Both the position numbers and the translations under genes were made by a program. The notes under the pieces were generated by a model, which worked only from the letters and a program-made list of their open reading frames with translations, was not told the origin of the DNA and did not search any database. A stretch of 64,000 nucleotides of DNA from the NCBI GenBank assembly GCA_037132055.1, contig JBAXPX010000001.1, forward strand, positions 5,424 through 69,423. Direction: 5' to 3'. This stretch comes from a bacterium. Lineage in GTDB: Bacteria; Patescibacteriota; Minisyncoccia; Phycocordibacterales; UBA9973. Shown here piece by piece: positions 1,652 through 58,533 of the stretch. Numbering within the stretch: position 1 is the stretch's first letter; the number at the start of each line of letters is the position of its first letter.

Positions 1652-1732
1652 AAATTTATTTTAACATATTTTTAAAAAATAAAAAAACAGTCTCTTTTGA
1701 GATAAATGTTTATAATAAGTGCAAAAATTTTG

Positions 1733-1816
1733 TGCCCAGGGAGAGAATCGAACTCTCATGATGTTGCCATCAATAGATTTTGAGTCTATCGCGTCTACCA
1801 ATTCCGCCACCTGGGC
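1733..1816 (-). tRNA. tRNA-Leu (anticodon CAA), long variable arm
   Basis: The reverse complement folds as a cloverleaf with a GCCCAGG/CCTGGGC acceptor stem, anticodon loop CUCAAAA and a long extra arm. Confidence 0.8.
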
Positions 1817-1906
1817 ATAACTAGAATATTACTTTAATTATACTTAAAAATCAATTTATCCACAGGTTATATTTGCATTATATCATATATGAGATAATAT
1901 ATATGT

Positions 1907-3418
1907 ATGCAAAAAAATATACAACAAAAGCAAATTGGAGATTTTATTAAAAATTTAAGAGAACAACGAGGCATGACGCAAGATGATTTTGCCAAAGCTC
2001 TCGCTACGTCTCAAAGTGCAGTCGCTCGAATGGAAAAAGGAGAACAAAATTTTTCCACTGAAATTTTATCAAAAATAAGTAACGTCCTCGAACACAAACT
2101 TGTTTGTATAAATGATTCGATTGATTTTGAAGTAAAGGGTGGAAAAAAATTGAGTGGTACTATTAAAACAAATTTTTCTAAAAATGGCTCTGTCGGACTT
2201 TTGTGTGCTTCCCTACTTAATAAAGGAACAACTACTCTTCACGGTATTGCTCGGATAGAAGAAGTGAACCGAGTGATTGAAATTTTAGAAAGCATTGGAG
2301 TACAAATAAAGTGGATTGATAACAATACTGTAATAATTACTCCTCCAAAACAGTTTAAATTAGAAAATATAAACGTAGAATCTGCTGTTAAAACTCGTTC
2401 TATCGTTATGTTTATGGGTCCCCTTATTCATTTTCTTTCATCTTTTTCTTTACCCCATGCCCAAGGATGCAATTTGGGCAAGCGTTCTATTTCTGCTCAT
2501 ATATATGCCTTGGATGAGCTTGGTATAAAAATCAAAACTACCAATAAAAGTTACGAAATAAGCACTAAAAAACTAAAACCTGCTGAAATAGTAATGTATG
2601 AAACAGGCGAAACTGCTTGTGAAAACATTTTGACGGCTTCAGCACTAATTCCAGGTAAAACGATTATTTTTTTTGCTAGCGCAAATTATATGGTACAAGA
2701 AATTTGTTTCTTCCTTGAAACCCTAGGAGTAAAGATAGACGGCATTGGCACTTCTACCTTAATCGTTCACGGAGTAAAAGAAATTAATAAAAATATTGAA
2801 TATTGGAATAGTGAAGACCCAATCGAATCAATGATGTTTATTTCTGCTTGCATTGTTACAGATTCAAAACTTACTATTACTAGATGCCCGATAGATTTTC
2901 TTTCCCTAGAACTTGAAAAGTTAAAAAGGATGAACTTAAAATATAAAGTTTCTAAAATATATTATTCATATAATGGTCGCACAAAACTGGCTGATATAAT
3001 CATTTTTCCAAGTAAATTAAAAGCTTTACCTGATAAAATTCACGCCAATAAATATCCAGGGATAAATATGGATAATTTGCCATTTTTTGTACCAATTGCG
3101 ATAAAAGCCAAGGGTCAAACAATGATCCATGACTTCTTTTATGAAAATAGGGCTATATATTTCACTGAATTAAATCGTTTAGGGGCAGATATCACTCTTG
3201 CCGACCCCCATAGAGTCTATATTCAAGGTGGAACGCCTCTAAAACCTGCTCAAGTTGTCTGTCCACCCGCCCTAAGACCTTCGATGATAATCCTTGTTTC
3301 GATGTTGGGAGCCCCAGGAACCTCAATCCTGCGTAATGTATATATGATTAATCGTGGTTATGAAGAAATTGCAGAACGATTAAACTCCATCGGCGCAGAT
3401 ATAAAAATATTGAAATAA
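1907..3418 (+). CDS. murA: XRE-type helix-turn-helix domain fused N-terminally to a UDP-N-acetylglucosamine 1-carboxyvinyltransferase (MurA)-like enolpyruvyl transferase
   Basis: The first ~65 aa are an XRE/Cro-like HTH (LREQRGMTQDDFAKALATSQSAVARMEKGE). The remainder has MurA hallmarks: KLSGTIKTNFSKNGSVGLLCASLL at the N-terminus, an active-site-like loop HAQGCNLGKR and the C-terminus NRGYEEIAERLNSIGADI. Confidence 0.7.
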   Translation: MQKNIQQKQIGDFIKNLREQRGMTQDDFAKALATSQSAVARMEKGEQNFSTEILSKISNVLEHKLVCINDSIDFEVKGGKKLSGTIKTNFSKNGSVGLLCASLLNKGTTTLHGIARIEEVNRVIEILESIGVQIKWIDNNTVIITPPKQFKLENINVESAVKTRSIVMFMGPLIHFLSSFSLPHAQGCNLGKRSISAHIYALDELGIKIKTTNKSYEISTKKLKPAEIVMYETGETACENILTASALIPGKTIIFFASANYMVQEICFFLETLGVKIDGIGTSTLIVHGVKEINKNIEYWNSEDPIESMMFISACIVTDSKLTITRCPIDFLSLELEKLKRMNLKYKVSKIYYSYNGRTKLADIIIFPSKLKALPDKIHANKYPGINMDNLPFFVPIAIKAKGQTMIHDFFYENRAIYFTELNRLGADITLADPHRVYIQGGTPLKPAQVVCPPALRPSMIILVSMLGAPGTSILRNVYMINRGYEEIAERLNSIGADIKILK

Positions 3419-4341
3419 TGAAAAAAAAGTCAAAAGTTATCGTAATACTTGGTCAAACGGCTACTGGAAAAAGTGATTTGGCTGTTAAAATAGCCCTTCG
3501 ACTATGCTCAGGACAAGCTCAAAAATACGGCGGAGAAATTATATCTGCTGATTCTAGGCAAGTTTATAAAGACCTTGATATTGGTACGGGCAAAATTACT
3601 AAAAAAGAAATGCAAGGTATTCCGCACCACTTGCTTGATGTAACAAACCCAAAGAAAAAATTTACAGTTGTGGAATATCAGAAAAAAGCAATCTCTGCTA
3701 TGGCAGAGATAATTAAAAAAGGCAAAATCCCTATCATTTGTGGAGGTACAGGTTTTTATATTGATGCCATAACAAAAGGAATAATTTTTCCAGAAATTCC
3801 ACCCAGTAATAAACTTCGAAAAATTCTAGAGAAAAAAACTACCCTACAACTTTTTAAAATGCTCCAAAAATTAGATAAAGCTCGAGCAAAAGATATTAAA
3901 AACAAAAACGAACAGAATAATAGAGTACGACTTATTCGAGCGATTGAAATTGCTAAAACTCTCGGTAAAGTTCCTAAAATCATCAAGGACTCCCCTCCGT
4001 ATAAATTTATAAAAATCGGTCTTTTTGCCCCAGCTGATATTCTAAAAGAAAAAATAAACGAAAGACTTTTTGCAAGAATCAAAGTCGGGATGATTAAGGA
4101 AATAGAAAATTTACATAAAAATGGTTTACCGTGGAAAAGAATGGAAGAACTCGGTCTTGAATATAGATATGTTTCATTATATTTACAAAACAAATTAACA
4201 AAAAAAGAAATGACCGAAAAACTAAATTCTGAAATTTATAAGTATGCAAAACGTCAAATGACATGGTTTAAAAGAGATAAAGATATAATTTGGTTTGATG
4301 CATCAAAAAAGAACTTTAAAAATGTATTACCATATCTATAG
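3418..4341 (+). CDS. miaA: tRNA dimethylallyltransferase MiaA
   Basis: P-loop GQTATGKS, followed by IISADSRQVYKDLDIGTGK and GIPHHLLD. Confidence 0.8.
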   Translation: MKKKSKVIVILGQTATGKSDLAVKIALRLCSGQAQKYGGEIISADSRQVYKDLDIGTGKITKKEMQGIPHHLLDVTNPKKKFTVVEYQKKAISAMAEIIKKGKIPIICGGTGFYIDAITKGIIFPEIPPSNKLRKILEKKTTLQLFKMLQKLDKARAKDIKNKNEQNNRVRLIRAIEIAKTLGKVPKIIKDSPPYKFIKIGLFAPADILKEKINERLFARIKVGMIKEIENLHKNGLPWKRMEELGLEYRYVSLYLQNKLTKKEMTEKLNSEIYKYAKRQMTWFKRDKDIIWFDASKKNFKNVLPYL

Positions 4342-4361
4342 GAATAGATTAAATATAAAAA

Positions 4362-4386
4362 AACCCCAGTAAAAACTGGGGAGTGA
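4362..4386. terminator. Bidirectional rho-independent terminator hairpin (CCCCAG-taaaaa-CTGGGG) shared by convergent miaA and the purD-side transcript
   Basis: Perfect 6-bp GC stem with A/T runs on both sides. Confidence 0.55.
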
Positions 4387-4397
4387 GTTGAAAATAA

Positions 4398-4646
4398 TCA
4401 TTCAGGGGAAATAAAGTTCCCCCTTTTGACCGAGAGCTCTCTGTCCTCCTCGGTGGTCTCATCAGATATGGGAGACCCGAATGTAATCTCTTTGTTTTTT
4501 TCTCCATCTTCTGTGGGGATGTTGTACCCGAGATCCGGAAAGACCGGGATCCCGTCATTCGCTTTCTTTTTTGTCATATCTTTAAGATTAAAGGGTTTTT
4601 GTGCTTTTTTAAATAATACAAAACTTAAACAAAAAGTCAAATACAC
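4398..4646 (-). CDS. Hypothetical small ORF (59-82 aa) downstream of purD; alternatively a non-coding structured RNA (see findings)
   Basis: The ORF lies in a locally GC-rich segment (about 50% GC against a roughly 33% background) that contains several perfect hairpins. Coding status is uncertain. Confidence 0.2.
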   Translation of the reverse strand: MYLTFCLSFVLFKKAQKPFNLKDMTKKKANDGIPVFPDLGYNIPTEDGEKNKEITFGSPISDETTEEDRELSVKRGNFISPE

Positions 4647-10860: not shown

Positions 10861-12582
10861 TTAATATACTTCTTGTTGGTAACATCTTTCACAATAAATA
10901 ATCTCTGGTCTATCTGGAGCGTAACTTGTTTCAAATTCATTGAAACATCCTTCTCTCATGCATTTTCGATGCCAGAGTTTTGGAGGTAATATTTTTGCAA
11001 ATCTTTCATAGTATCTGCAATTAGAACATTTGTTTGGAATTGGAATGTTGTGTTTTTTATAAAACTGAAACTCATCTTTGGTTAAACGAAAAGCTGTCAT
11101 ACATTGATGGTTGCACTTGCCTTCATCCAAGCAACCTAAAACTTCATCAAGAATTTCTTCTTTCACATCTTTGATATTATCTGGGATATCTTCGGCTTTA
11201 ATACTAATTGTATAATTTTTTGGCTCAGGGTCTTTCCATCTATATCCCATTTTTAATGCTTCTTCTTTGGTAAGTGGTAAAAAATCCTGCGCACAAGTTT
11301 CGTTATACGCGAACGCAGATAATTCTATGGGGAAAAATTCCCCATACTTATATACCCTCCCACCTTTATCAATATATGGCATTTCTTCCATGTGTTTTTT
11401 AATCTTTTTAATTAGTTCTTCATATTCTTTTTTCTTATATATTTTATTTAAAATCACATTTTCTTTATTTTTTATACTTATACACCCAAAAAGTTTTTTT
11501 GATGACATGCAATATTCTAGATACTCTCCATCTCGAACCTGATTCATTGCTGAGTATGAAAATTTAACATTATAATCATTCAAACATCCGGTAGTATACT
11601 CATATATTAGCTCTGACCATCCACCAAAAAATGTGTCCAAGGAATCTTTCATTCCAATAGAACGATAATTATATTTTAAATTTTCACTATTAGAACACTC
11701 AAAACAATCTTTGCAATTCTTCGCGTTTAACAAATTATTCCCTGTAGAATCAACTGATTTTGTGATATTAGCAAAACGATAGATAGCTTTTTTACAAAGA
11801 TCATCAAATTCTTTTATTAAAATTCCTCTAGATTTTCTACTTCCTAAATTTAACTTTTCAATCTCCTTAAAATAATCTTCCTTAGAATATTTCTTATTTC
11901 TAAAATAAAATTCTTTATTTCTTAAGTTAGAAGAGAGGACGCAATTACTACAATTTACGCAATCAATTAAAAAATACGAATCTAGACAGTTCCTCGAAAG
12001 AATAAGATTTTGAGAATTATAATTTTTTTCACACTCAATATTTTCATATAAACCGTTCGACTCTATTATGTTATAACTATCTAAGATATCATATGATTTA
12101 TCAACAATTCTTGAATAGAATATGTTTTCTGATCCTAAAACAACTGAAGTGGATAAATAAACATTTTTTGACTCACCTACCATATTTGAATAAGGAGAAT
12201 TCAAAGTACTTCTCTGCCAAAGACCAAGGCGAGGAACAACAAGAGAAAGATCTTTCCATTGCTCAAAAAAGTTTTTAGAAAAGTCATAATCACGCCCGTA
12301 GGAAGTCGCATCCCAATTATCAGAATACCAGCATTCTTTGCAATATACAGGGGAAATAGCATCTTTGGGATACATAGATATCATATCTTTTTGACATAAA
12401 TCACAAGCGCGTTTATATAAAGTCCGTTCATTCCGCCAAGTCATTCGTCTTTGGAATCTGCATTCTGGACAAAATGTCGGAGGAGGAACTTTTATGCGTT
12501 CATAAAATCCAAAATCATCACTAGTTATTTCAAAATTTGTTTTGCAATTCTGACATTCTTTATTCATAGACCATCTATCCAT
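10861..12582 (-). CDS. Large cysteine-rich zinc-ribbon repeat protein (intact copy), function unknown
   Basis: 573 aa with more than 40 Cys in CxxC and CxxCxxC arrays. N- and C-terminal modules share an internally duplicated zinc-ribbon motif (FxITxDDFxFYE..VPPPTFCPECR and FRLTKDEFQFYKKHNIPIPNKCSNCR). It is paralogous to the split copy at 12820-14568. Confidence 0.6.
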   Translation of the reverse strand: MDRWSMNKECQNCKTNFEITSDDFGFYERIKVPPPTFCPECRFQRRMTWRNERTLYKRACDLCQKDMISMYPKDAISPVYCKECWYSDNWDATSYGRDYDFSKNFFEQWKDLSLVVPRLGLWQRSTLNSPYSNMVGESKNVYLSTSVVLGSENIFYSRIVDKSYDILDSYNIIESNGLYENIECEKNYNSQNLILSRNCLDSYFLIDCVNCSNCVLSSNLRNKEFYFRNKKYSKEDYFKEIEKLNLGSRKSRGILIKEFDDLCKKAIYRFANITKSVDSTGNNLLNAKNCKDCFECSNSENLKYNYRSIGMKDSLDTFFGGWSELIYEYTTGCLNDYNVKFSYSAMNQVRDGEYLEYCMSSKKLFGCISIKNKENVILNKIYKKKEYEELIKKIKKHMEEMPYIDKGGRVYKYGEFFPIELSAFAYNETCAQDFLPLTKEEALKMGYRWKDPEPKNYTISIKAEDIPDNIKDVKEEILDEVLGCLDEGKCNHQCMTAFRLTKDEFQFYKKHNIPIPNKCSNCRYYERFAKILPPKLWHRKCMREGCFNEFETSYAPDRPEIIYCERCYQQEVY

Positions 12583-12819: not shown

Positions 12820-14568
12820 CTAATAAACTTCTTGTTGATAACAACGTTTGCAATAAACTATTTCTGGTCTTTCGGGATTATAACTTGTTTCAAACTCATT
12901 TTTACATTGACCTTCGTGTCCATGGTTTGATTCCTCACACACGCAAGCTCTATGCCAGAGTTTAAGTGGTTGACGTTTTAAAAGTCTTTCATAATTACGG
13001 CAATTAGGGCAAAGAGTTGGTAGTGGTATATTGTTTGCTCGATAAAAAGAAAGTTCATTTGGAATAATTTTAAAAGCAGTCGTACATTGTTGATTGCATT
13101 TTCCTTCATGCGCACAAGCAATCACTTCATTTAAAATATCATCGCTGACCAAATTAATGCTCCCTGGTAATTCATTAGATAATACTGTAGGAATATAATT
13201 TTTTGTATCTGGCTCTTTCCAATTATAACCAATAGCTAGAACTTCTTCTTTAGTTTTTGGGAAAAATTGTTGAGCTATTGTTTCATTATAAGCAAAAGGC
13301 AACATATCACATGGAAAATATTCTCCATAACGCAAGACTCTGCCTTTTTTGTCAGTAAATGGTAAAGAGTTCATTTGTTCTTTTATTTTTGGAACCAATT
13401 CTTCATATTCCTCCCTTGAATACTGTTTATTTAAAATACAATATTGTTTTTTATGAAGCCCAACACATCCAAATAAATTTGAAGAAGAACGGCAATTGAT
13501 GCAATATTCTGCTTTTATTAGTTGATCCCAAGATTCATTACAAAATAAAACTGACGAGCATTGTCTACCAATACTACAAGATTCATAAATGAGTTCACTT
13601 CCGAGTCCCCAATAGGTGTAATCCATAACGTCTTTTGCCTTAAAAATGCCATATAAATATTTTCCATCTTCAACTTCATCACAATTGAAAGACATTTTGA
13701 CTGTTTTTGAATTTTCAATCCAATTTCCTGAGGAATTTACTGAATGATGCTCTACCATACATGGAACAATATATTTCAAAGACTCTTGTGTCACTTTTTC
13801 TTTTATTCTTTCAAAATCGACTCTGTTATAAATTTTAAATTCAGAAATTTTTTGTAAATATTCTTCTCTTCCATACTATTTGTTAAAAATGCAATAGTTT
13901 TTATTTCTTAAGTTAGTACACCCAAAGCAATTCTGACAATTTCGACAATTTAACAAAAAGTATGAATCAATGCACTCATTACACTCTCTAGAGTATTTCA
14001 AGCCGTTACAATTATAGCAATCAATGCATTCATAACATTTTTCGCATTTGTGAATGTTGTAGCAATCCATACAATTTTTTGTATCCCAATACGAATCTCC
14101 ATACAAACAGTCTTCGTTTCTATTGCTAGCAAAAATAAGATAGCAGTTTTTCAAATCACTCACTCGATTGGCATACTCACTGTTTGTATTAAAACCTTGT
14201 CTTATTATTCCGAGCCGTGGCACATCTTTGAATAATTCTTCATATTGTTCAAAAAAGGTTTGGGAAAAGTTAAAATCTCTTCCATATTCTATTCCATCAA
14301 AATCATCAGAATGAAAACACTCGAAACAATAAACTTTATATTGACTGTCTTTTGGATAAATTAATATTTTTTCTTCGCCGCACGAATCACATTCTCGTTT
14401 ATAAAGAGCCCTTTCATTTCGCATTATTAAGCGTCGAATTAACCGACATTCCGGACAAAAAGTCGGTGGAGGAACTTTAATCTTTTCGTAGAAATTAAAA
14501 TCTTCAGGCTCTATAGTGAAAGAACCACGACAGTTTTGACATATTACATTTTGTGGTTCATGCTCCAT
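12820..14568 (-). pseudogene. Second copy of the cysteine-rich zinc-ribbon protein, interrupted by an in-frame TAG
   Basis: ORFs 13876-14568 (N-terminal part) and 12820-13794 (C-terminal part) are collinear with the intact paralog. The frame continues across the stop (…NLRNKNYCIFNK*YGREEYLQKISEFK…), and the TAG aligns with an AAG Lys codon in the paralog. Confidence 0.6.
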
Positions 14569-17432: not shown

Positions 17433-18446
17433 TTATCTCTTAGTTAAAACAGTTTTTTTATACACATCTAGGTGCTCGAGAGCTATGCCCGTACCCTTTG
17501 CCACACAAAACAATGCATCTTCTGCGATAGTAGCTTTCACTCCTGTTTTTCTGTAAACTAAATCAGCTAAATTCCTAAGTAATGATGAACCACCAGTCAT
17601 AATAATCCCATGATCGATAATGTCGGACGCAAGTTCTGGCGGAGTTTCTTGTAATACATCTTTTATCGCTTTTATAACTTGTTTTAATTCGTTGTCTATG
17701 GCTTTTACTATTTCATTGGTACCAACCTGAACAGAACGAGGTAATCCTTGTATAAAATCACGCCCTTTAATTGTCACACGAAGTTCTTCTTCTAAGTGCA
17801 CGGCTGCTCCAATTTTTATTTTTACTTCTTCTGCGGTTTTATCGCCTATTGCCAGATTAAAAGTTTTTTTAATATAATCTGCTATTGCTTGATCTATTTT
17901 ATTCCCAGCACATTTTACAGAAGTTGAAGCAACAATACCTCCGAGAGAAATAACTGCAACATCAGTAGTTCCACCTCCTATGTCGACTACCATATATCCT
18001 TTTGATTCATGAATTGGAATTCCAGCACCAATCGCCGCGAGAATGGGCTCTTTCACTACGTATGCATTTTTTGCACCTGCACGTATCGCTGCTTCAACGA
18101 CAGCTCTTCTTTCAGTAGAAGTAACTCCCGCTGGAACAGAAACCATAACATCTGGCTTAAAGAAATTAAACTTACCCATAGCTTTGTTTATAAAATATCT
18201 AAGCATAGCCTCGGTTACCCGATAGTCAGCAATAACTCCATCTTTCATTGGACAATATGTAATGATAGATTCTGGTGTTTTTCCTATCATGTCTTTTGCT
18301 TCAAATCCTATAGCTAAGATTTTATTATCCTGTTCGGAAACTGCAACAACTGAAGGCTCATTCAAAACTATTCCCTTGCCAGGTAAAAACACCAAGGTAT
18401 TTGCTGTTCCTAAATCTATCCCCAATTTTTTCGAAAAAATACTCAT
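17433..18446 (-). CDS. mreB: Rod-shape determining actin homologue MreB
   Basis: GIDLGTANTLVF phosphate-1 motif and actin-fold motifs throughout. Confidence 0.85.
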   Translation of the reverse strand: MSIFSKKLGIDLGTANTLVFLPGKGIVLNEPSVVAVSEQDNKILAIGFEAKDMIGKTPESIITYCPMKDGVIADYRVTEAMLRYFINKAMGKFNFFKPDVMVSVPAGVTSTERRAVVEAAIRAGAKNAYVVKEPILAAIGAGIPIHESKGYMVVDIGGGTTDVAVISLGGIVASTSVKCAGNKIDQAIADYIKKTFNLAIGDKTAEEVKIKIGAAVHLEEELRVTIKGRDFIQGLPRSVQVGTNEIVKAIDNELKQVIKAIKDVLQETPPELASDIIDHGIIMTGGSSLLRNLADLVYRKTGVKATIAEDALFCVAKGTGIALEHLDVYKKTVLTKR

Positions 18447-31577: not shown

Positions 31578-32954
31578 TTAATATGAAAGCAAATCAATAT
31601 CTGCCTGAATTTTATTTTTTAAAGCAATAACACTTCTACTATAAGAACATGTAGACCCCCCAGAACCATAATACTTACAAGCTGCTCTTGATTGAGCACT
31701 GACGCTATTGCCGACAGCTCCTAGATCGGTCAAATACATAGAAGAAGCCATAAAGGCATCCTCTGGTTCCCATGGATTTGGATAATGACCTAAAATCGAT
31801 TGCAAGCGATCTATAAATATTTGCCAAGTCGAAGGAATAAATTGAGCAGGGCCCATAGCTCCCCCATAACCTTTTACTCCAGCGATTGGACAAGACACAG
31901 TGGTATCAAATGGATTGAAGTTTAATTTTTTAGTAATCTCCACAAAAGGATCTATGTCGCGTCCTGGTTTCATTAGATTTGTCCAAATTTTTTGTGTAGC
32001 ACGATTTATACCATATCCAGCTTTAGGCCCTACTATGTCAGTCAAATAACATTTACCAACATTGGAACCAAGGTTGCTTTCTTGGGTAAGAATAGCGAGC
32101 AGAAACGCTGGATCAATCCCGTTTTTACTCTTAGCTTCATTGGCATATAAAAGAGCTGTACCGAACGGAATACCTTTTGCCAAACCTGCGAGTGAGAATA
32201 ATGCGTTACGAATTTTATCTGCTCTTGCTTTTTTCTCAGCTAAGACTTTTTGGTAATCACTTTCTTTTTGTTTACTAATGGCTAGCAATTTTTTCTTTTC
32301 GGTTTCTGATTGGGTAACTTTTTTTTGTGCAAGTTCAAGCTCAGCCTTAGCGTCTGATTCAGCATCTTGTTTTTTTTGTAAATCAGCTTTTTGGGCTTCT
32401 GTTTCAGTCTTTATCCCAGTTATATCTTCGACTGATTTTTTGATCGCCTGCTTTATAGAAGCATAAGATTCTAGATCACTATAAAATCCAGATAGTGTCT
32501 CATCCGAAAAGATCAAGTGAATAAAATTTTGATTGTCAGCTTCATTTGTATTGCGAAGTAGTTGCCCCAATGATTGTTTTTCACTTTCAATTTTTTGAGA
32601 TAAATTTTTTATAGTTGTAGATTTTTCACTTATTGAAACCTTCAGTGTCGCTATGGCCAATGCCCTTGATTTTATTTTTGCTTTGAGCGCATTGATTTGA
32701 CTAGTTAAAAATTTAATATCACCTGTTATTGTACCTGTTTGTTTAGTTTGTTCTGCTAGTTGGCTCTCAAAAGCTGCCACTTGGGCAAGCAGTTGATTTA
32801 ATTCACTTTGACAAAACTGCTTTTGATCATTTGAAGAATTATTATTTAAATCAACAACACAATCAAAAGAAAAAGTCGTTCTTGGTATTCCAAAAGTAAT
32901 AAAAATAGCAAAAACAAAAAAAGCTATGACCATATTTCGCATCATAACTTTCAT
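31578..32954 (-). CDS. Secreted or membrane-anchored coiled-coil protein with a C-terminal lysozyme-like (lytic transglycosylase, SLT-type) domain
   Basis: N-terminal hydrophobic segment, a long Q/K/E-rich coiled coil, and a C-terminal LAILTQESNLG…GAMGPAQFIPSTW resembling the SLT catalytic core. Confidence 0.4.
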   Translation of the reverse strand: MKVMMRNMVIAFFVFAIFITFGIPRTTFSFDCVVDLNNNSSNDQKQFCQSELNQLLAQVAAFESQLAEQTKQTGTITGDIKFLTSQINALKAKIKSRALAIATLKVSISEKSTTIKNLSQKIESEKQSLGQLLRNTNEADNQNFIHLIFSDETLSGFYSDLESYASIKQAIKKSVEDITGIKTETEAQKADLQKKQDAESDAKAELELAQKKVTQSETEKKKLLAISKQKESDYQKVLAEKKARADKIRNALFSLAGLAKGIPFGTALLYANEAKSKNGIDPAFLLAILTQESNLGSNVGKCYLTDIVGPKAGYGINRATQKIWTNLMKPGRDIDPFVEITKKLNFNPFDTTVSCPIAGVKGYGGAMGPAQFIPSTWQIFIDRLQSILGHYPNPWEPEDAFMASSMYLTDLGAVGNSVSAQSRAACKYYGSGGSTCSYSRSVIALKNKIQADIDLLSY

Positions 32955-51067: not shown

Positions 51068-52531
51068 TTATTCGTTGTTTTTAGGTTTCATCAGTGGAAA
51101 GAGTTGCGTCTCACGAATTGGTTTATCTACTAAAAAGGCAAACAACATTTCTCCAAAACCAAATCCACAAGTTGGTGGCATTCCGTATTCCAACATTTCC
51201 ACAAACTCTGTATCTGGTACCATTGCTTCTTTGTCCCCCGCTTTCAAGAGTTCTTTCTGTGCTTCAAATCTCTCCGCTTGATCTATAGGATCATTTAACT
51301 CCGAAAAGCCATTTCCTACCTCAGCTCCTGCAATAATTATTTGGAATCTTTCCGTAAGCTCTGGATTTTTCTCCATTGATTTTGAAAGTGGTGAAACAAG
51401 TTTTGGATGCCCGGTTAAAAATACAGGACCCGCGATTTTCCTTCTACAATATTTCCAAAGCGTATCGACAAGTCGTTCCATCGTAGTGCCATCATAAACG
51501 ACATTTAATTCTTCAAGTTTATTTTTTATATCTTCCAGGGAAGCGTCGAGCACGTCAATCCCTGTTTCTTTTTTAATTATCTCCCGATAATCAATCTTTT
51601 CCCATTTTTTCCCTAAATCAAATTTATGTCCTCTTGTTTCAAATTCTGTTTTTCCAAAAACTTCAAGCGCAATTTTTTTGTAAAGTTCTTCAGCTAAACT
51701 CATCGCATCTTTATAGTTTGCATATGCCCAATAAAACTCTAAATTTGTAAACTCCTGTAAATGATTTGCATCTGTGCCTTCGTTCCTATAAGCTCTGCCT
51801 ATTTCAAAAGTTTTATTAAATCCTGCTGCCATAAGACGTTTCTGCCAAAGTTCTCCGATACATATCCGCAAATAAAGAGGTAATTTAAAGTCTTCATTAT
51901 AGGTTTTAAATGGGGCAGCATCTGCTCCACTTGCTGTCACTTCAAGCGACGGAGTTTCAACTTCCATAAATCCGTGTTCTTTCATAAAAGATCTAGCAGT
52001 ATCCCAAAACTTCACCTTTTTTTCAAAAAGATCTTTTATTTCAGGACTCATCAAAATATCTAGATATCTTTTTCTAAACCTTTCTTCCACGTCCTGAAGT
52101 CCATGCCATTTCTCTGGTAGTGGTCGTAAGCTTTTAGACAACATTCTCCAGTCTTTTGCTTCAATAGTTTTCTCTCCTCTTTTAGTAGTAAAGAAACTTC
52201 CTTGTAACTCTACAAAGTCCCCAATGTCCACAACTTCACTAAAAAAATTCAATTTTTCTTCACCAATAGAGTCTTTTTTAATTAATCCTTGGAACTGAGC
52301 TGTGCCATCATCGAGCGTAATAAAAACGATAGCTCCCTGCCCACGAATAGACATTATTCGTCCTGAAACCCACTTTGTTTCATTAGATTTTTCAAGGTTA
52401 TCAAATTTGCCTATAACCTCTTCTAAAGTGAGTTCTCTCTTTGATTCCGCTGGATAAGGATCAATACCTCTTTTTTTTAAGAGTTCTAATTTTTTGATTC
52501 TGGTGTCTCTTATTTCGTCAATTGATGACAT
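51068..52531 (-). CDS. lysS: Lysyl-tRNA synthetase (class II)
   Basis: OB-fold N-terminus and class-II motifs (FMEVETP, …GFGFG…). Confidence 0.8.
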   Translation of the reverse strand: MSSIDEIRDTRIKKLELLKKRGIDPYPAESKRELTLEEVIGKFDNLEKSNETKWVSGRIMSIRGQGAIVFITLDDGTAQFQGLIKKDSIGEEKLNFFSEVVDIGDFVELQGSFFTTKRGEKTIEAKDWRMLSKSLRPLPEKWHGLQDVEERFRKRYLDILMSPEIKDLFEKKVKFWDTARSFMKEHGFMEVETPSLEVTASGADAAPFKTYNEDFKLPLYLRICIGELWQKRLMAAGFNKTFEIGRAYRNEGTDANHLQEFTNLEFYWAYANYKDAMSLAEELYKKIALEVFGKTEFETRGHKFDLGKKWEKIDYREIIKKETGIDVLDASLEDIKNKLEELNVVYDGTTMERLVDTLWKYCRRKIAGPVFLTGHPKLVSPLSKSMEKNPELTERFQIIIAGAEVGNGFSELNDPIDQAERFEAQKELLKAGDKEAMVPDTEFVEMLEYGMPPTCGFGFGEMLFAFLVDKPIRETQLFPLMKPKNNE

Positions 52532-52539
52532 TTTAAAAA

Positions 52540-53007
52540 TTAAGATACGTCTATGATTTTATAATTAACTTCACCTTTTGGAGTTTGGAAAGAAATCGTC
52601 TCTCCTTTTTTTCTACCAAATAGTGCTGCACCAAATGGTGATCTGTTAGAAATTTTGCCAAGTGCCATATCGGCTTCTTCAGAACCTACTATCTGATAAG
52701 TTTTTTCTTCTTTAGTACCATCCTTTTTTACTACTACTTTTGAACCAACCTCAATCTCCTCTCCTCCTCCACCTGCAACAACTTGCGAAGACTGCAAAAT
52801 CTGTTCTATTCTTTTTATGCGCTCTTCGAGCTTGCCTTGATCTTCACGAGTTTGATGATATTCAGCATTTTCTGAAAGATCGCCGAGCGATTTAGCGTAC
52901 TCTAAAGCCGCTAAAATCTCTTTTCGTTTTGGTCCTTTTAGGTCTTTTAACTCAATCTCAAGTGCCTTTTTCTTTTCTTCAGTTATGTAATCTCCTCCTT
53001 GTTTCAT
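52540..53007 (-). CDS. greA: Transcription elongation factor GreA
   Basis: Coiled-coil N-terminus with GDLSENAEY, and the C-terminal ISNRSPFGAALFGRKKGE. Confidence 0.8.
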   Translation of the reverse strand: MKQGGDYITEEKKKALEIELKDLKGPKRKEILAALEYAKSLGDLSENAEYHQTREDQGKLEERIKRIEQILQSSQVVAGGGGEEIEVGSKVVVKKDGTKEEKTYQIVGSEEADMALGKISNRSPFGAALFGRKKGETISFQTPKGEVNYKIIDVS

Positions 53008-53151
53008 CTTTTTAAAAATTTATTTTTAATAAAAAACTCAAAGCCGTAATTTATCTTTACGAAACTTGTATAATAAAATACTAGCATTTTTAACAAAAAA
53101 GTAAATACAAGAACTTGCTAAATATTTTTTATATGATAATCTATAGCTTAT

Positions 53152-53379
53152 ATGGCAAAAACAGTAATCGAAGTAAAGAAAAACCCAAATGAAAACAACG
53201 CAAGCGTTTTGCGTCGTTTTTCTAGAAGAATTCAAGAGTCTGGAATAATTCAAAAAGTAAAAGGTTCTCGTTACAACGAAAGAAAAGAATCAAAACTAAA
53301 AGTAAAGAAAAGCGCATTGAAACGAATGAATCGAAGAAAAGAAATAGAAAAACTTCGAAAGTTAGGAAAGGTTAAATAA
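53152..53379 (+). CDS. rpsU: 30S ribosomal protein S21
   Basis: MAKTVIEVKKNPNENNASVLRRFSRRIQESGIIQKVKGSRYNERKESK… resembles S21. Confidence 0.65.
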   Translation: MAKTVIEVKKNPNENNASVLRRFSRRIQESGIIQKVKGSRYNERKESKLKVKKSALKRMNRRKEIEKLRKLGKVK

Positions 53380-53385
53380 AAAAAT

Positions 53386-53775
53386 ATGCAGAATAATTTT
53401 TCTGTTACAAACTCCACAAAAGACAAGCTTCCAAACTTGCATTTTGTAATTATAAAAAACGATATACTAGGCAAAGAATATTCTCTTTCTTTGGCTTTTA
53501 TTGATGAAAAAAAATCAAGAGAAATAAATAAAACGTATAGAAATAAAGATAAATCAACAAATGTTTTGTCTTTCCCTTTGTCTAAAAAGGATGGAGAAAT
53601 ACTTATCTGCCCAGCTGTAGTAAAAAAGGAAACAAAAAAATTCAACAAAAATTTCAAGGAATTGTTGGGATTTTTAGTTATCCACGGAATGCTTCATTTG
53701 AAAGGAATGGGACATAGTAGTAGAATGGAAGAAGAAGAAAAAAAATATGATCAGAAATATTTCAGTCGGCATTGA
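53386..53775 (+). CDS. ybeY: Endoribonuclease YbeY
   Basis: HGMLHLKGMGH zinc-binding motif. Confidence 0.7.
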   Translation: MQNNFSVTNSTKDKLPNLHFVIIKNDILGKEYSLSLAFIDEKKSREINKTYRNKDKSTNVLSFPLSKKDGEILICPAVVKKETKKFNKNFKELLGFLVIHGMLHLKGMGHSSRMEEEEKKYDQKYFSRH

Positions 53776-54910
53776 TATCGGAACTTCCACCACACGTGTT
53801 GTGGTCGGAGAATTTTTAAAAGGAGAAAAAAATCCTAAAATTATTGGCATAGGTGAAAGTGAAACAAAAGGAGTCAGACATGGTTATATCATCCATATTC
53901 CTGATACAGTGTCTTCTCTGAAAATCGCCATCTCTATGGCAGAGAAAAGTTCTGGTATAAAAATAAGGCGCGCCTTTGTTTCAATCGGTGGTACAACTCT
54001 ACGTTCGGAGATAGGAACTGGATCCGCTATTATTTCTAAGGCAGATAGTGAAGTAACTAGTCTAGACGTCAATAAAGCATTAGAAGAAAGCGAAGTTAAC
54101 CTGAGTCTAGGTAATAAAAAAATAGTATATGTCTCTCCTATTTCTTTTAGACTGGATGGAAAAGAAGTTCTGGGTAGACCTGAAGGTATGCATGGAAATA
54201 AGCTTGAAATAAAAGCTATTTTTATAACCAGTTCCACAAAACACTGGGAAGACCTTATAGAAACAGTGACTAATGCTGGAGTAGAACCGATAGACGTGAT
54301 TCCTTCTCCACTGGCTAGTAGCTATATTTCATTATCTAGTAGACAAAAAATAGTAGGGGCTGCTTTGATAGATATCGGAGCTGAGACGGTGTCTATGGGA
54401 GTATTTGAAAATGAGTCACTCATCTCGCTTCATACATTTTCTATTGGTTCAGCAGACATAACAAATGACATAGCGCTCGGATTAAAGATCCCACTTGAGA
54501 AAGCAGAGAGTTTTAAACTAGGAGATAATGACGAAGAGTACTCAAAGAAGAAATTAGAAGAAATAGTAGAAGCACGTCTTACAGATATTTTTGAATTGAT
54601 TGAAAACCATCTTAAAAAAATAAAAAGAAATGAACTTCTACCTGCTGGCGTAGTATTCGTAGGTGGAGGAGCAAATTCTTTTGGTCTTGAAGATTTATCA
54701 AAAACTGTCTTACGATTACCATCGAAAATAGGGACAACTGATTTTTTTGGCAACACAAAAACCAAATTACGTGACCCTTCTTGGTACACAGCTATCGGCC
54801 TTGTTATATACAATAAAAATATTAAAGGATATGTAGAAGGTTCTCTGCCAAATCTATTCAAAGATATAAAAAACTCTTTAAAATCAATGGTAAAACAGCT
54901 AATGCCATAA
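53747..54910 (+). CDS. ftsA: Cell division protein FtsA
   Basis: Actin-fold N-terminus VGIDIGTSTTRVVVGE and its genomic pairing with ftsZ. Confidence 0.75.
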   Translation: MIRNISVGIDIGTSTTRVVVGEFLKGEKNPKIIGIGESETKGVRHGYIIHIPDTVSSLKIAISMAEKSSGIKIRRAFVSIGGTTLRSEIGTGSAIISKADSEVTSLDVNKALEESEVNLSLGNKKIVYVSPISFRLDGKEVLGRPEGMHGNKLEIKAIFITSSTKHWEDLIETVTNAGVEPIDVIPSPLASSYISLSSRQKIVGAALIDIGAETVSMGVFENESLISLHTFSIGSADITNDIALGLKIPLEKAESFKLGDNDEEYSKKKLEEIVEARLTDIFELIENHLKKIKRNELLPAGVVFVGGGANSFGLEDLSKTVLRLPSKIGTTDFFGNTKTKLRDPSWYTAIGLVIYNKNIKGYVEGSLPNLFKDIKNSLKSMVKQLMP

Positions 54911-55019
54911 ACAGTTCCTGAAATATTTATGTCTAAAGTAAAGCAGCTTTGCTTTTTTTTATTTTCTGCTATTATAAACACATAATCATTAATTTATTAA
55001 TAAAAACAAGAAAAACCAT

Positions 55020-56225
55020 ATGCCAAAAGTAAACCAAGAAATAGAGACTTTCGCTCGTATCAAAGTCATCGGAATAGGGGGATCTGGGAAGAATGCAATC
55101 AACCACATGATCGCAACAAAAGTGAAAGGGGTAGAATTTATTTGTATGAATACTGATACTCAGGATCTGCATCATTCACAGGCTGAGAAAAAAATTCATA
55201 TTGGGAAAAATCTTACAAAAGGCCTAGGTGCTGGAATGAATCCAGAAATAGGAAGAAAGGCTGCTGAAGAAACTAAGGCTGAAATTCAAGATGTGATAAA
55301 AGGTTCAGAGATGGTCTTCATAGCTTGCGGAATGGGAGGTGGTACAGGTACAGGAGCCGCTCCGATAGTTGCTCGTGCAGCAAAAGAACAAGGAATACTA
55401 ACTGTAGCTGTTGTTACAAAACCATTTTTCTTTGAAGGAAGTCACAGAATGAAAATAGCAGATAAAGGACTAGAAGAACTAGCAAAAGAAGTAGATGCAA
55501 TAATAGTAATTCCAAACGACAAGCTTCTACAAATTTCCGATAAAAATACTAATTTCAAAAATGCTTTTGCAACTTGTGATGATGTTCTAAGACAAGCAGT
55601 GGAAGGCATATCTGACCTTATTACCACACCCGGTATCATAAACGTTGACTTTGCTGATATAAAAGCAGTGATGTCCGATGCTGGTTCTGCCCTTATGGGT
55701 ATAGGATCTGCTTCGGGTGAAAAAAGAGCTGAAAAAGCTGCATTAATGGCCATCAATTCCCCTCTTCTTGAAGTTTCAATAAATGGTGCAAAAGGAGTGT
55801 TGTTTGCAATCTCAGGCGGAGACGACATAACAATCCACGAAATTCAAGAAGCTGCAAAAATAATAACTGAATCAATAGACAAAGATGCAAAAGTTATTTT
55901 CGGAACCATTCACGACGAAAAAACTAAAAAGGGTGAAATAAAAGTCACCGTTATTGCTACCAGCTTCCCTACAGACATGCCACGCAAAAGTCTTTTCACT
56001 GGAACTTCTGTATTAAATACCCAACCAGTACTAAAAGAAGAAAACGCTCAAGCTGTAAAAAAAGAAATTCACAATAGCTTCATCAATATAAACAATAATA
56101 AAAGCAATGATGATTTTTTTAAGAAACCAGAAAAGAAACCAGAAATTGTAGAAGACATAATAATAGACGATGACGCCGACGATTGGTCCGCTGTACCTGC
56201 ATTTCTACGACGCAATAAGAAATAA
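55020..56225 (+). CDS. ftsZ: Cell division GTPase FtsZ
   Basis: GGGTGTGAAPIVA tubulin signature. Confidence 0.9.
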   Translation: MPKVNQEIETFARIKVIGIGGSGKNAINHMIATKVKGVEFICMNTDTQDLHHSQAEKKIHIGKNLTKGLGAGMNPEIGRKAAEETKAEIQDVIKGSEMVFIACGMGGGTGTGAAPIVARAAKEQGILTVAVVTKPFFFEGSHRMKIADKGLEELAKEVDAIIVIPNDKLLQISDKNTNFKNAFATCDDVLRQAVEGISDLITTPGIINVDFADIKAVMSDAGSALMGIGSASGEKRAEKAALMAINSPLLEVSINGAKGVLFAISGGDDITIHEIQEAAKIITESIDKDAKVIFGTIHDEKTKKGEIKVTVIATSFPTDMPRKSLFTGTSVLNTQPVLKEENAQAVKKEIHNSFININNNKSNDDFFKKPEKKPEIVEDIIIDDDADDWSAVPAFLRRNKK

Positions 56226-56228
56226 TTT

Positions 56229-56375
56229 GTAAAAAAACCAAAACAAGATTTTTTCGGTACGGATTTTTTGAAGCTTAAAAAATCTCATCGAGCCTGAGGC
56301 TCTCAGAGCCGAAGGCCTGAAATTTTCGGCTCGTCAGCCTCAAAACCCCTTCAAAATCTTGTTTTGGTTTTTTAC
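56229..56375. repeat. ~147-nt nested palindromic element between ftsZ and trxB (23-bp AT-rich outer stem; GC-rich inner hairpins)
   Basis: GTAAAAAAACCAAAACAAGATTTT…AAAATCTTGTTTTGGTTTTTTAC encloses GAGGCT-ctca-GAGCCGAA-[ggcctgaaatt]-TTCGGCTC-gtc-AGCCTC. The core CGAAGGCCTGAAATTTT resembles CGAAGGCTCAGAAATTTT of the 27.4 kb and 37.2 kb repeat. Confidence 0.6.
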
Positions 56376-56398
56376 TTTTTTTTGATATACTAACTCTT

Positions 56399-57382
56399 AT
56401 GATATATGACCTTATAATTATTGGCGGAGGGCCGGCTGGATCTGCTGCTGCTGTGTACGCCGCTCGCAAACGCTTAAATACTTTATTTATTACCGATGAA
56501 TTCGGAGGGCAATCTATCGTGTCTGAAAAAATATATAACTGGATTGGCACAACTGAAATCGCTGGGTCAAAACTTGCGGAAGATCTCAAAAATCATGTAC
56601 TAGCTAATAAAGGAGAAAAGCTTACTATAAAAGAAGGTTTAACCGTAGTAGCCATTGTGAAGATTGTGAAGGACGGTCCTTCACAAAATTCACAAAACTG
56701 TGAAGGACCGTCCTTCACAAGCACAGGTATTTTTTCAATAAAAACTGAGTCGGGAGAAGAGTTTGAAACAAAGACTGTTTTAATAACTACAGGAAGTAAG
56801 CGTAGAAAATTAGAAATAAAAAACGCTGACAAATTGGAACATAAAGGACTCACCTACTGTGCTACTTGTGATGGACCAATGTTTTCTGGCGCTGATGTTG
56901 TAGTTGTCGGCGGGGGCAACGCTGCTTTTGAAAGCGCTTCTCAACTTCTCGCATATTGTAATTCCGTAACAATTTTAAATAGAAGTGATTCATTTCGAGC
57001 TGATCAAATAACGATAGACAAACTTTCAAAAAATCCAAAACTCAAAATTATAAAAAATATTGAACTTCTGGAAGTTTTGGGTGATAAATTTGTAGAAGGA
57101 ATAAAATATAAAGATATAAATACAAACAAAGAAAACACTCTCAATATCACTGGGATTTTCGTAGAAATAGGCCAAATTCCAAATACTGAATTCGCAAAAG
57201 ACCTTATTTCCCTTGATAAAATAGGCAAAATTAAAATAGACCCATGGACTGGAAAAACAGAAACTTCAGGCATTTGGGCAGCTGGTGATTGTACTAATAT
57301 TCTCTATCATCAAAACAACATCGCCGCTGGCGATGCTGTAAAAGCTTTGGAGGATATTTATTTAACAATACACACTAAATAA
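56399..57382 (+). CDS. trxB: Thioredoxin reductase
   Basis: IIGGGPAGSAAAVYAARK and the redox CATCDG. It contains about 60 bp of in-frame palindromic insert (56664-56720). Confidence 0.8.
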   Translation: MIYDLIIIGGGPAGSAAAVYAARKRLNTLFITDEFGGQSIVSEKIYNWIGTTEIAGSKLAEDLKNHVLANKGEKLTIKEGLTVVAIVKIVKDGPSQNSQNCEGPSFTSTGIFSIKTESGEEFETKTVLITTGSKRRKLEIKNADKLEHKGLTYCATCDGPMFSGADVVVVGGGNAAFESASQLLAYCNSVTILNRSDSFRADQITIDKLSKNPKLKIIKNIELLEVLGDKFVEGIKYKDINTNKENTLNITGIFVEIGQIPNTEFAKDLISLDKIGKIKIDPWTGKTETSGIWAAGDCTNILYHQNNIAAGDAVKALEDIYLTIHTK

Positions 57383-57384
57383 GT

Positions 57385-57726
57385 TTATTCGCCATATCTA
57401 TTTTTCTTTCCATCGTTTGCGTGATATGAAATATCATCTTCAGTTTCTTTTATCCATTCAGATATAGAAAGACATTTCCCGAGACGCATTATACACCATT
57501 TGTCTTTCTGTCTAATTAAGTTCTCTTCTTTAAAATAAAGAGGGTACGAACCTTGTAAAAGCTCTATTGTTTCTTTCTTTTCTTGCTCAATCGCCAATTG
57601 CTCTTGTTCCGCTTTTTCAAAATCTATTTTGAGTTGTTCTTCATTTTTTTGTGGTAAATTTTCCATATTTATATTATGAATTATAGAGGATAAAGATAAT
57701 TTTGCAAATTTTAATTTATTTGCCAT
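57385..57726 (-). CDS. Hypothetical protein
   Basis: ORF only; no recognisable motif. Confidence 0.3.
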   Translation of the reverse strand: MANKLKFAKLSLSSIIHNINMENLPQKNEEQLKIDFEKAEQEQLAIEQEKKETIELLQGSYPLYFKEENLIRQKDKWCIMRLGKCLSISEWIKETEDDISYHANDGKKNRYGE

Positions 57727-57813
57727 TTTTTTATTTTCGTTGTAATATAAGCACGAAATAAAAAGACTGGAATAGTCCAGCTCTTAGACCGTTATTTAAC
57801 AAAAGGAGGTTTT

Positions 57814-58518
57814 ATGAACAAAAAAATTATTGTTGCTTTGGATGTAGACACACTCGAAAAGGCTAAACCCCTCATCGAAATGCTTGCACCACATGTAATG
57901 TGTTTCAAAGTAGGACTCGAACTTCTCACTGCAGAAGGAGCACCAAAGGTTGTCAACTGCATTCATTCAATGGGTGGCTCGGTCTTTTTTGACGGAAAAT
58001 TCAATGACATTCCAAACACAGTTGCCAATGCTGTAAAAGCCCTTGCAAAATTTGAAGTTGCAATGTTCAATATCCATGCGTCATCTGGCGTCGAGGCGAT
58101 GATGGCTGCAGTTGCGAACAGAGGGGTTTCCCTCGTTCTTGCTGTTACGGTTTTGACTTCGCTCGAAGAAAACAATGCTCACCTGATCTTTGGAGCACCG
58201 AGCAAAGCCAAGGTTTTGGAATTTGCAAGATATGCAAAAATTGCAGGTTGTGAAGGAATTATTTGCTCACCGCAAGAACTCGAGATTATCGGTAAACAAA
58301 AAGAGCTTAAAGGTCTCTTGAAAATCACTCCCGGCGTTCGTCCCCTGTGGGCTTCTGTTGGTGACCAAAAAAGAGTCATGACTCCAGGAGAAGCAATAAC
58401 AGCTGGAGCATACGCCATTGTAGTAGGCCGGCCCATCACAGACCCTTCGAAAGAAATCGGAACACCTGTGGATGCGATAAAAAGAATCCAGGAAGAAATC
58501 GATTCAGTACAACAATAA
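57814..58518 (+). CDS. pyrF: Orotidine 5'-phosphate decarboxylase
   Basis: IIVALDVDTLEKAKPLIEML…FKVGLEL, preceded by the strong SD AAAGGAGG. Confidence 0.65.
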   Translation: MNKKIIVALDVDTLEKAKPLIEMLAPHVMCFKVGLELLTAEGAPKVVNCIHSMGGSVFFDGKFNDIPNTVANAVKALAKFEVAMFNIHASSGVEAMMAAVANRGVSLVLAVTVLTSLEENNAHLIFGAPSKAKVLEFARYAKIAGCEGIICSPQELEIIGKQKELKGLLKITPGVRPLWASVGDQKRVMTPGEAITAGAYAIVVGRPITDPSKEIGTPVDAIKRIQEEIDSVQQ

Positions 58519-58533
58519 AAAGGAGGAAAAGTT

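Follow-up and report, generated by a model that had tools for sequence, protein, structure and literature searches.

An XRE-type helix-turn-helix domain fused to MurA in Patescibacteria and a candidate operator in the promoter of its gene

The HTH-MurA fusion, its distribution and its neighborhood

The DNA analyzed here is a 64,000-nucleotide (64-kb) stretch of a Patescibacteria genome (GenBank assembly GCA_037132055.1, contig JBAXPX010000001.1, forward-strand positions 5,424 to 69,423), hereafter called the window, and coordinates are counted from its first letter. Close to its beginning lies a gene, HTH-murA, in which an XRE-family helix-turn-helix (HTH) domain is joined to the enzyme MurA. 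MurA, the enzyme that fosfomycin targets, catalyzes the first committed step in making the cell wall. The gene and its parts are as follows, with the supporting evidence in brackets; AF2 stands for AlphaFold2, pLDDT for the predicted local distance difference test, and pN/pS for the ratio of nonsynonymous to synonymous differences per site.

1907..3418, plus strand: HTH-murA open reading frame (ORF), 503 amino acids, ATG start
1931..2104, plus strand: XRE/Cro-C1 helix-turn-helix domain, residues 9-66 (Pfam HTH_3, AF2 helices, pN/pS)
2012-2035, plus strand: recognition helix SQSAVARM, residues 36-43, within the HTH
2090..2122, plus strand: flexible linker, residues 62-72 (drop in AF2 pLDDT)
2123..3415, plus strand: full-length MurA (UDP-N-acetylglucosamine, UDP-GlcNAc, enolpyruvyl transferase, EC 2.5.1.7) domain, residues 73-503 (Pfam, NCBIfam, alignment, Foldseek)
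2468-2470, plus strand: codon tgc of the catalytic Cys188 in the GCNLGKR loop (sequence)

Residues 14-61 match Pfam HTH_3 (PF01381; E = 6.9e-13, 48.9 bits against a cutoff of 23) and the N-terminus also matches HTH_31 (36.1 bits, cutoff 27). The AF2 model of the fusion protein (pLDDT 93.3; predicted template modeling score, pTM, 0.84) places helices at residues 2-20, 25-32, 36-43 and 51-61 with pLDDT values of 86-94. The linker that follows has a mean pLDDT of 60 over residues 61-70, falling below 50 at residues 67-69. The Pfam family EPSP_synthase (PF00275) is matched at residues 76-492 over 417 of 417 profile positions (E = 1e-40). Residues 73-502 align end to end with solved MurA chains in phmmer, and Foldseek superposes the modeled MurA fold on 1uae and 3kqj with a template modeling (TM) score of 0.93 and a root-mean-square deviation of 2.2 Å. 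An earlier note, made from the letters alone, had described an N-terminal XRE-family HTH joined to a full-length MurA-like enzyme that retains the active-site Cys loop GCNLGKR. The domain search and the alignment to MurA structures that it proposed confirm both domains.

The enzyme domain belongs to a divergent MurA subfamily with 28% identity to E. coli MurA. It scores above the cutoff of the NCBIfam MurA subfamily model NF006873 (302.7 against 297 bits) and below that of the equivalog model TIGR01072 (292 against 392.7 bits). The equivalents of E. coli K22, N23, R91, C115, R120, D305, R371 and R397 are retained, eight of eight. At the D369 position stands Ala, a substitution shared with the unfused relatives P0121, P0123 and P0124. 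The E. coli numbering was checked against the expected residues, and the motif alignments agree with HMMER alignments to MurA entries of the PDB. By residue content the protein thus appears to be a catalytically competent MurA joined to an XRE HTH. The nearest solved relatives of the HTH are the DNA-binding XRE proteins PezA, ClgR, HipB and C.BclI, with the likeness to HipB and PezA limited to the generic HTH.

The fusion is neither a chance event nor an assembly artefact, since an identical protein is found on contigs of up to 69.5 kb and all 120 closest proteins in a collection of 5.8 billion have both domains. Named members among these 120 belong to Candidatus Nomurabacteria, Paceibacterota or Patescibacteria. 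A scan of GTDB, with one genome per species, found relatives in at least 270 stretches, and 76 of the 80 loci kept encode the HTH. The fusion is present in at least 270 GTDB species (Nomurabacteria/Paceibacteria). A metagenome scan recovered at least 568 further stretches, and the 80 loci kept from it encode fusions 47-89% identical to the window protein, all 80 retaining the eight catalytic residues. A large metagenomic subgroup is annotated as Candidatus Saccharibacteria or Saccharimonadales. Among representatives of clusters at 50% identity, full-length fusions extend down to 32% identity, and unfused relatives occur at 52-58%. One fusion cluster of 246 members comes from cultured Nonomuraea (Actinomycetota), for example WP_214634277.1. 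The HTH-MurA architecture is lineage-wide in at least two classes of Patescibacteria. The survey proposed in the earlier note therefore finds the fusion it called unusual to be real, though not peculiar to this genome: it is the norm in large clades of Patescibacteria and occurs in Nonomuraea. Databases name such proteins either 'UDP-N-acetylglucosamine 1-carboxyvinyltransferase' or 'XRE family / helix-turn-helix domain-containing protein'. A different, much larger MurA fusion is P0258, with 1204 amino acids and a MurA-like domain at residues 756-1197.

The N-terminus cannot extend beyond the annotation, because an in-frame TAA at 1895-1897 precedes the ATG at 1907 and no start codon lies between them. 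The suggestion that a longer N-terminus might begin upstream is hence untenable. The only internal Met codons before the enzyme domain are M23 and M42, both inside the HTH. Across 75 orthologues pN/pS is 0.19 in the HTH, 0.12 in the linker and 0.18 in MurA, with synonymous sites near saturation (pS about 0.8), and the HTH is under the same purifying selection as the enzyme. The HTH motif TSQSA(V/I)xR(I/M)EKGxQN is nearly invariant and forms the best-conserved stretch of the protein among fusions that are 29-48% identical overall. It is barely credible that the mature protein lacks the HTH, whether because the annotation is wrong, because the segment is an untranslated leader or because it is what remains of a decaying neighboring gene. 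Some database gene calls begin at an internal Met and give proteins of 481-486 amino acids, and one lineage (P0125) bears a degenerate HTH. Such a view is contradicted by the low pN/pS of the HTH at saturated synonymous sites, by a continuous frame with no start codon near the MurA boundary, by an ATG at a fixed distance from the -10 element described below, and by the HTH being the most conserved segment of the family. The untranslated leader, which the earlier note had named as its own refutation, is excluded on the same grounds together with the positions of the Met codons. Judged from these comparisons, the HTH is translated.

The genes on either side are the following.

1732-1816, minus strand: tRNA-Leu(CAA), between parB and murA, upstream of HTH-murA
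3418..4341, plus strand: miaA, tRNA isopentenyltransferase (Pfam IPPT, E = 6e-65)

The murA stop codon TAA (3416-3418) shares its last A with the miaA ATG (3418-3420), giving TAATG and the one-nucleotide overlap that had been pointed out from the sequence. The gene miaA lies downstream of murA in 50 of 80 related loci and is probably the second gene of the operon. The window and L005 have the tRNA-Leu(CAA) gene on the minus strand, and the close relatives L007, L021, L073, L077 and L079 have it on the plus strand, which indicates a small local inversion. A type II toxin-antitoxin reading (HipB, PezA, MqsA) was rejected, as tRNA-Leu and miaA flank the gene and no toxin gene lies beside it. The window also encodes alr, ddl, mreB (17433-18446), a Mur ligase, a PBP2/FtsI-type transpeptidase and mraW. 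The presence of alr, ddl, mreB, the Mur ligase and the transpeptidase indicates that the organism makes peptidoglycan. No second murA and no second HTH copy was found in the window by tblastn of the MurA domain and of the HTH, and no second MurA lies within 4-5 kb of 160 related genes.

A palindrome in the HTH-murA promoter

Immediately upstream of the gene lies an 18-base-pair palindrome set within a putative promoter.

1856..1864, plus strand: DnaA-box-like 9-mer TTATCCACA, a perfect consensus match just upstream of the -35-like hexamer; membership uncertain
1873..1878, plus strand: -35-like hexamer TTGCAT (conservation across loci)
1879..1896: candidate operator, 18-base-pair palindrome TATATCATATATGAGATA, filling the promoter spacer and overlapping the -10-like hexamer
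1895..1900, plus strand: -10-like hexamer TAATAT (conservation across loci)
1907..1909, plus strand: ATG at the predicted transcription start, 7 nucleotides after the -10-like hexamer

The consensus of the palindrome is TAT(A/C)TCATATATGA(T/G)ATA, and the -10-like hexamer begins with its last two bases. Two symmetric versions, TATATCATATATGATATA and TATCTCATATATGAGATA, are perfect palindromes, and the window has the hybrid between them. The site at 1879-1896 is the sole match in the window even at two mismatches, and dinucleotide-preserving shuffles give 0.00 expected matches with up to two mismatches. Allowing up to three mismatches, or searching with the arms by themselves, gave no convincing further site in the window that would point to a wider regulon; a lone match with three mismatches at 59410 is within chance.

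The promoter elements are recognizable by their conservation. A TTGnnn hexamer abuts the palindrome upstream in 73 of 76 loci (TTGCAA in 33, TTGCAT in 28), and in 67 of those the spacer between -35 and -10 is 16-17 nucleotides. TAnnnT occupies palindrome positions 17-22 in 72 of 76 loci (TATACT in 23, TATAAT in 20, TAAAAT in 16). A consensus promoter scan did not call TTGCAT/TAATAT, with the -35 matching TTGACA at three of six positions, and the assignment of the promoter therefore rests on conservation. The ATG starts 5-9 nucleotides past the -10 in 53 of 71 loci, with a mode of 7 as in the window. The murA-miaA mRNA is probably leaderless or nearly so, because the ATG sits at the usual distance of a transcription start from the -10. 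Reading the palindrome as an RNA structure was rejected: its place in the promoter spacer puts it before the inferred transcription start. Of 75 related loci, 24 carry a TTWTNCACA motif (perfect in 16) at a distance of 15-35 nucleotides on the upstream side of the operator; the background rate is 0.013 per 80 nucleotides. Its orientation to murA is constant whatever the orientation of the neighboring tRNA gene. This DnaA-box-like element may mark an input of DnaA into murA transcription.

The palindrome travels with the HTH. Whole loci of about 9.5 kb were scanned for matches at 16 or more of the 18 positions, and each of the 75 HTH-bearing loci with upstream DNA contains exactly one, always upstream of the fusion gene. 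It lies 19-78 nucleotides from the start in 70 loci and farther away in five, behind an inserted gene or a long leader. None of the four syntenic loci without an HTH has one. Among eight distant lineages with an intact HTH, seven have the operator upstream (L081, L082, L083, L084, L085, L086 and L087). Before P0128, a fusion 41% identical to the window protein, CATATCATATATGATATA stands 17 nucleotides upstream of the annotated start and 23 upstream of the likely start. The Nonomuraea gene has CATCTCATATGTGAGATA 30 nucleotides before its start, in a genome of 70% GC. Close variants lie 22-36 nucleotides before the starts of P0189, P0229, P0129 and P0144, and for P0143 the operator precedes the first gene of its operon. 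In L089 (197-1786, encoding P0125) the HTH has decayed beyond Pfam recognition, the catalytic residues of MurA are intact, and the operator is missing.

Metagenomic loci (n = 74 usable) show an 18-mer with complementary arms 29 ± 2 nucleotides before the ATG. Counting all nine pairs, at least eight match in 34% of these loci against 1% of control windows. Over seven arm pairs with at least six matching, the figures are 45% against 3.3% for the metagenomic loci and 84% against 3.5% for the GTDB set. The arms vary together, reading TATATCA...TGATATA in most loci and ATACC...GGTAT or TACC...GGTA in others, and the center varies symmetrically to CACATGTG in L059, L097 and L163. Among Nomurabacteria loci the base at operator position 4 is associated with that at position 15 (Fisher p = 0.005). 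The recognition helix varies along with the site: position 15 is G in 38 of the 39 loci with SQSS(I/V)PR and T in 30 of the 37 with SQSA(V/I)AR, both being counts that ignore shared ancestry.

Several individual loci depart from the common layout. In L047 there are two tandem operator-like copies at 3943-3960 and 3972-3989, 58 and 29 nucleotides before the start. A gene is inserted between the promoter-operator and HTH-murA in L004 (3399-3998) and L023 (2264-2871); one insertion encodes a histidine-phosphatase-like protein of 186 amino acids and the other a P-loop protein of 191 amino acids, and each starts at the leaderless position. In L082 (Nonomuraea sp. NEAU-A123, WP_214634277.1; 70% GC), HTH-murA spans 3001-4530 and is catalytically intact, with an AT-rich operator at 2971-2988. 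The Nonomuraea gene adjoins a phage-type integrase gene.

Relatives without the HTH and fusions without an intact active site

Four GTDB loci (L073, L077, L078 and L079) encode MurA without the HTH, 84-87% identical to the window enzyme, and share the order relA-parB-tRNALeu-murA-miaA with fused relatives. In these loci murA begins 0-30 nucleotides after a plus-strand tRNA-Leu gene, with which it is probably co-transcribed. No separate HTH gene was found when it was looked for in the four loci. Phylogenies were built with a fast distance method with bootstrap, for which resolution inside the fused clade is poor. The position of these four MurAs within the fused Nomurabacteria clade, at 94-100% bootstrap support, indicates that the HTH was lost secondarily. 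At a deeper level, the MurA domains of fusions, whether active or dead, form one clade together with a few unfused ones (100% bootstrap), to the exclusion of canonical neighboring MurAs and E. coli MurA.

The opposite loss has occurred as well. Seven proteins (P0128, P0129, P0138, P0143, P0144, P0189 and P0229) kept the HTH and lost most catalytic residues; the C115 and R91 equivalents are gone in all of them and R120 or R397 also in most. P0129 and P0144 are divergent from a canonical murA-murB pair, each then followed by a ddl and/or Mur ligase gene. P0128 lies divergently to an operon that comprises a 164-amino-acid ORF, a Mur ligase gene and murA, with another Mur ligase gene following P0128 itself, and P0229 lies downstream of murB and relA. 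The exception is P0143 (L084), which stands behind NUDIX and nucleotidyltransferase genes rather than mur genes. Among dead fusions with enough flanking DNA, four of five lineages thus adjoin murA, murB, ddl or mur-ligase genes. In L081, L085 and L087 the palindrome lies in the 31-84 nucleotides between divergent starts, a stretch shared with a murA-containing operon. The operators of the dead paralogues are located as follows.

L081: 2984-3001
L085: 5184-5201
L087: 5972-5989
L086: 5965-5982
L084: 4685-4702

These dead HTH-MurAs look like an unrecognized family of pseudoenzyme regulators of peptidoglycan-precursor operons. The metagenome scan, intended to add pseudoenzymes, returned catalytically intact fusions only among its 80 kept loci, so that five lineages are the basis for associating dead fusions with mur genes. 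This range of forms agrees with two genuine functions in one protein, catalysis and the regulation of peptidoglycan-precursor genes, and either can persist without the other.

The fusion might also have moved between phyla. The Nonomuraea protein shares 55-65% identity with Saccharibacteria-like metagenomic copies compared with 48% with the window protein, and this closer relationship hints at gene transfer between Patescibacteria and Actinomycetota. Actinomycetota is the phylum hosting cultured Saccharibacteria.

Elsewhere in the window, the region 52000-64000 shows a change in GC skew from about -0.15 to about 0 and a rise in GC content to 0.39. A large serine recombinase with Resolvase and Recombinase domains is encoded at 60291-61814. 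The region may be an integrated element or a replication landmark. Three long ORFs on the minus strand have no Pfam match at E ≤ 1e-5: 10861-12582 (573 amino acids), 12820-13794 (324 amino acids) and 31578-32954 (458 amino acids).

Proposed autorepression and comparison with known systems

We suggest that HTH-MurA is probably bifunctional, being an active MurA and at the same time a repressor of its own gene through the palindrome in the promoter. An active enzyme would be tethered by the flexible linker to an XRE-type DNA-binding domain, and two copies of the protein would bind as a dimer to the palindrome in the spacer of a sigma-70-type promoter, overlapping the -10. The bound protein would cover the spacer and the -10 and so block RNA polymerase from a transcript that would start at the ATG at 1907. 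The murA-miaA transcript would be negatively autoregulated, with more MurA leading to less being made. We infer from the comparative data that the HTH physically binds the palindrome, that it does so as a dimer and that binding represses transcription. A site over the spacer and -10 of a sigma-70 promoter is the classical position for repression and not for activation. The earlier note had raised autoregulation as one possibility, and the conserved palindromic candidate operator in the gene's own promoter lends it support.

The MurA domain might also sense ligands. That its ligand state modulates DNA binding is possible rather than probable, and would turn one polypeptide into a sensor of the flux toward peptidoglycan precursors. 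Candidate states would be the open and closed forms with UDP-GlcNAc, or the 'dormant' complex with UDP-N-acetylmuramic acid (UDP-MurNAc) and a Cys adduct of phosphoenolpyruvate (PEP). UDP-MurNAc is a plausible input, because the Foldseek-listed MurA structures 3su9, 3swd, 3swe and 3swg bind this downstream product together with the PEP-Cys adduct. Retention of the complete MurA fold by the pseudoenzyme descendants suggests that regulation depends on the fold itself. A broader and tentative scenario, somewhat unlikely to hold in full, joins a flux homeostat with pseudo-MurA factors arising by duplication, transfer between Patescibacteria and Actinomycetota and possible coupling to DnaA. The ligand state of MurA would set the affinity of the HTH for the operator, so that transcription of the committed step would track demand. 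The ancestral bifunctional protein would have given rise to pseudo-MurA factors for murA, murB, ddl and mur-ligase operons, and the DnaA box might couple murA expression to the initiation of replication.

Several points weigh against autorepression by an active enzyme. The entire case is built on comparative sequence analysis. MurA is usually described as monomeric, and the dimerization that a palindrome requires is thus unexplained. That there is only one MurA and only one operator holds for the window and for 4-5 kb around 160 genes. In the four loci without an HTH, a single deletion could have removed promoter and HTH together, which makes their joint absence weaker than the count suggests. 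A sole distant lineage with an intact HTH, L090 (P0138), lacks the site in the 712 nucleotides available. The figures for covariation between helix and operator ignore phylogeny. In many lineages the right arm and the next bases read TGnTATAAT, an extended -10, and part of the conservation of the palindrome is likely due to promoter function.

This last overlap is one ground for supposing that the palindrome is mostly a promoter element, or the site of another factor, and that the fused HTH acts elsewhere (nucleoid tethering, other targets) or as an activator. The nearby DnaA-box-like element shows that other inputs are possible, and the search for further sites covered 64 kb of the genome. 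We hold this explanation to be distinctly unlikely. The palindrome reads as an operator rather than a mere promoter because its left arm mirrors and co-varies with the right, a symmetry for which a promoter has no need. The site also accompanies the fusion into unrelated contexts and into a 70%-GC genome, and decays together with the HTH in L089. The activator version is further at odds with the position over the spacer and -10. It is likewise unlikely that the protein is mainly a transcription factor, with a MurA-like domain serving as ligand sensor or dimerization module and a housekeeping MurA encoded elsewhere in the genome. Such a role would agree with the separate 100% clade of the MurA domain, whose identity is only 27-29% both with E. 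coli MurA and with canonical MurAs beside dead fusions, and with the missed TIGR01072 cutoff. Several lineages have a canonical murA beside the fused copy, and Nonomuraea, with genomes above 10 Mb, probably carries another murA. However, wherever a canonical murA adjoins, the fused copy is catalytically dead, while here and in the 80 metagenomic fusions all eight residues are kept. The strong selection on the MurA domain, the lack of a second MurA in the window or within 4-5 kb of the gene at 160 related loci, and the HTH-less orthologues, about 86% identical, that stand at the same locus as ordinary stand-alone MurAs all argue for an enzyme.

The HTH might instead be a protein-protein module that places MurA at the cell-wall machinery without binding DNA. 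A precedent is RodZ, whose XRE-like HTH does not bind DNA and acts in cell-wall biology by binding MreB (PMC9804626). The window does contain mreB. We regard this as very unlikely. The HTH matches HTH_3 and HTH_31, with the RodZ-type family HTH_25 (PF13413) not among the Pfam hits at E ≤ 0.01. MurA comes straight after the HTH, without the membrane segment expected in a RodZ-type protein, and the solved structures nearest to the HTH belong to repressors and antitoxins that bind DNA. A RodZ-like role would also leave the co-occurrence of the palindrome and the covariation between helix and operator unexplained.

Autorepression by an active MurA would set this enzyme apart from what is known of its control. 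To our knowledge, the known controls of MurA are post-translational, namely feedback by UDP-MurNAc through the dormant complex and regulated proteolysis, with dedicated transcriptional control poorly defined. Both feedback and the proteolysis of MurAA by ClpCP/ReoM in Firmicutes limit flux through the committed step, as HTH-MurA would, but they act on activity or stability whereas our proposal concerns transcription. In the literature covered, which left out most subscription-journal papers, we found neither an HTH-MurA fusion nor its operator described. The conserved promoter palindrome is a new finding of this analysis. If the proposal is true, it pinpoints both a regulator and its cis-element for making cell-wall precursors in Patescibacteria (the Candidate Phyla Radiation), a large group that is mostly uncultured. 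The idea is testable, as Saccharibacteria and cultured Nonomuraea share this architecture and operator, and transposon-insertion sequencing has already been applied to Saccharibacteria (PMC12173739).

In mode of action the closest parallels are BirA, PutA and NadR, each an enzyme that has a DNA-binding domain of its own and represses genes of its pathway. BirA likewise combines an N-terminal DNA-binding domain, a flexible linker and an active enzyme, and its palindromic operator overlaps a promoter in the pathway it belongs to (as predicted for HTH-MurA). Class I BirA proteins without the DNA-binding domain parallel the HTH-less MurA orthologues. In contrast to the XRE/Cro-type domain of HTH-MurA, that of BirA is a winged HTH, and the two enzymes come from unrelated families. 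BirA requires biotinyl-AMP for dimerization and acts as repressor of the bio biosynthetic operon, whereas the predicted target of HTH-MurA is its own promoter. XRE one-component regulators such as PuuR, ClgR, HipB and PezA share the HTH family, its N-terminal position, a palindromic operator and autoregulation. Their C-termini are small sensor or dimerization domains, or they have toxin partners, whereas the C-terminus of HTH-MurA is an essential enzyme of 430 amino acids with an intact active site. The ROK family (NagC, Mlc and XylR compared with glucokinases) also uses one fold both as a stand-alone enzyme and as a degenerate sensor fused to an HTH, although in another fold and pathway than MurA. 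This series parallels that of active MurA, active HTH-MurA and dead HTH-MurA, and we know of no ROK form that is both fully catalytic and fused to an HTH.

PutA and NadR ('trigger enzymes') unite enzyme and repressor in one polypeptide, and PutA represses its own gene. PutA differs in having a ribbon-helix-helix domain and in switching by membrane association, NadR in regulating NAD genes, and neither is concerned with cell-wall synthesis. By its sequence, HTH-MurA has two of the features expected of a trigger enzyme: a DNA-binding domain and a residue-intact enzyme in one polypeptide, and a candidate operator in its own promoter. If autorepression is true, these proteins would offer a natural series from enzyme to enzyme-repressor to pseudoenzyme repressor for studying the origin of transcription factors, and MurA would join BirA, PutA and NadR on the short list of enzyme-repressors.

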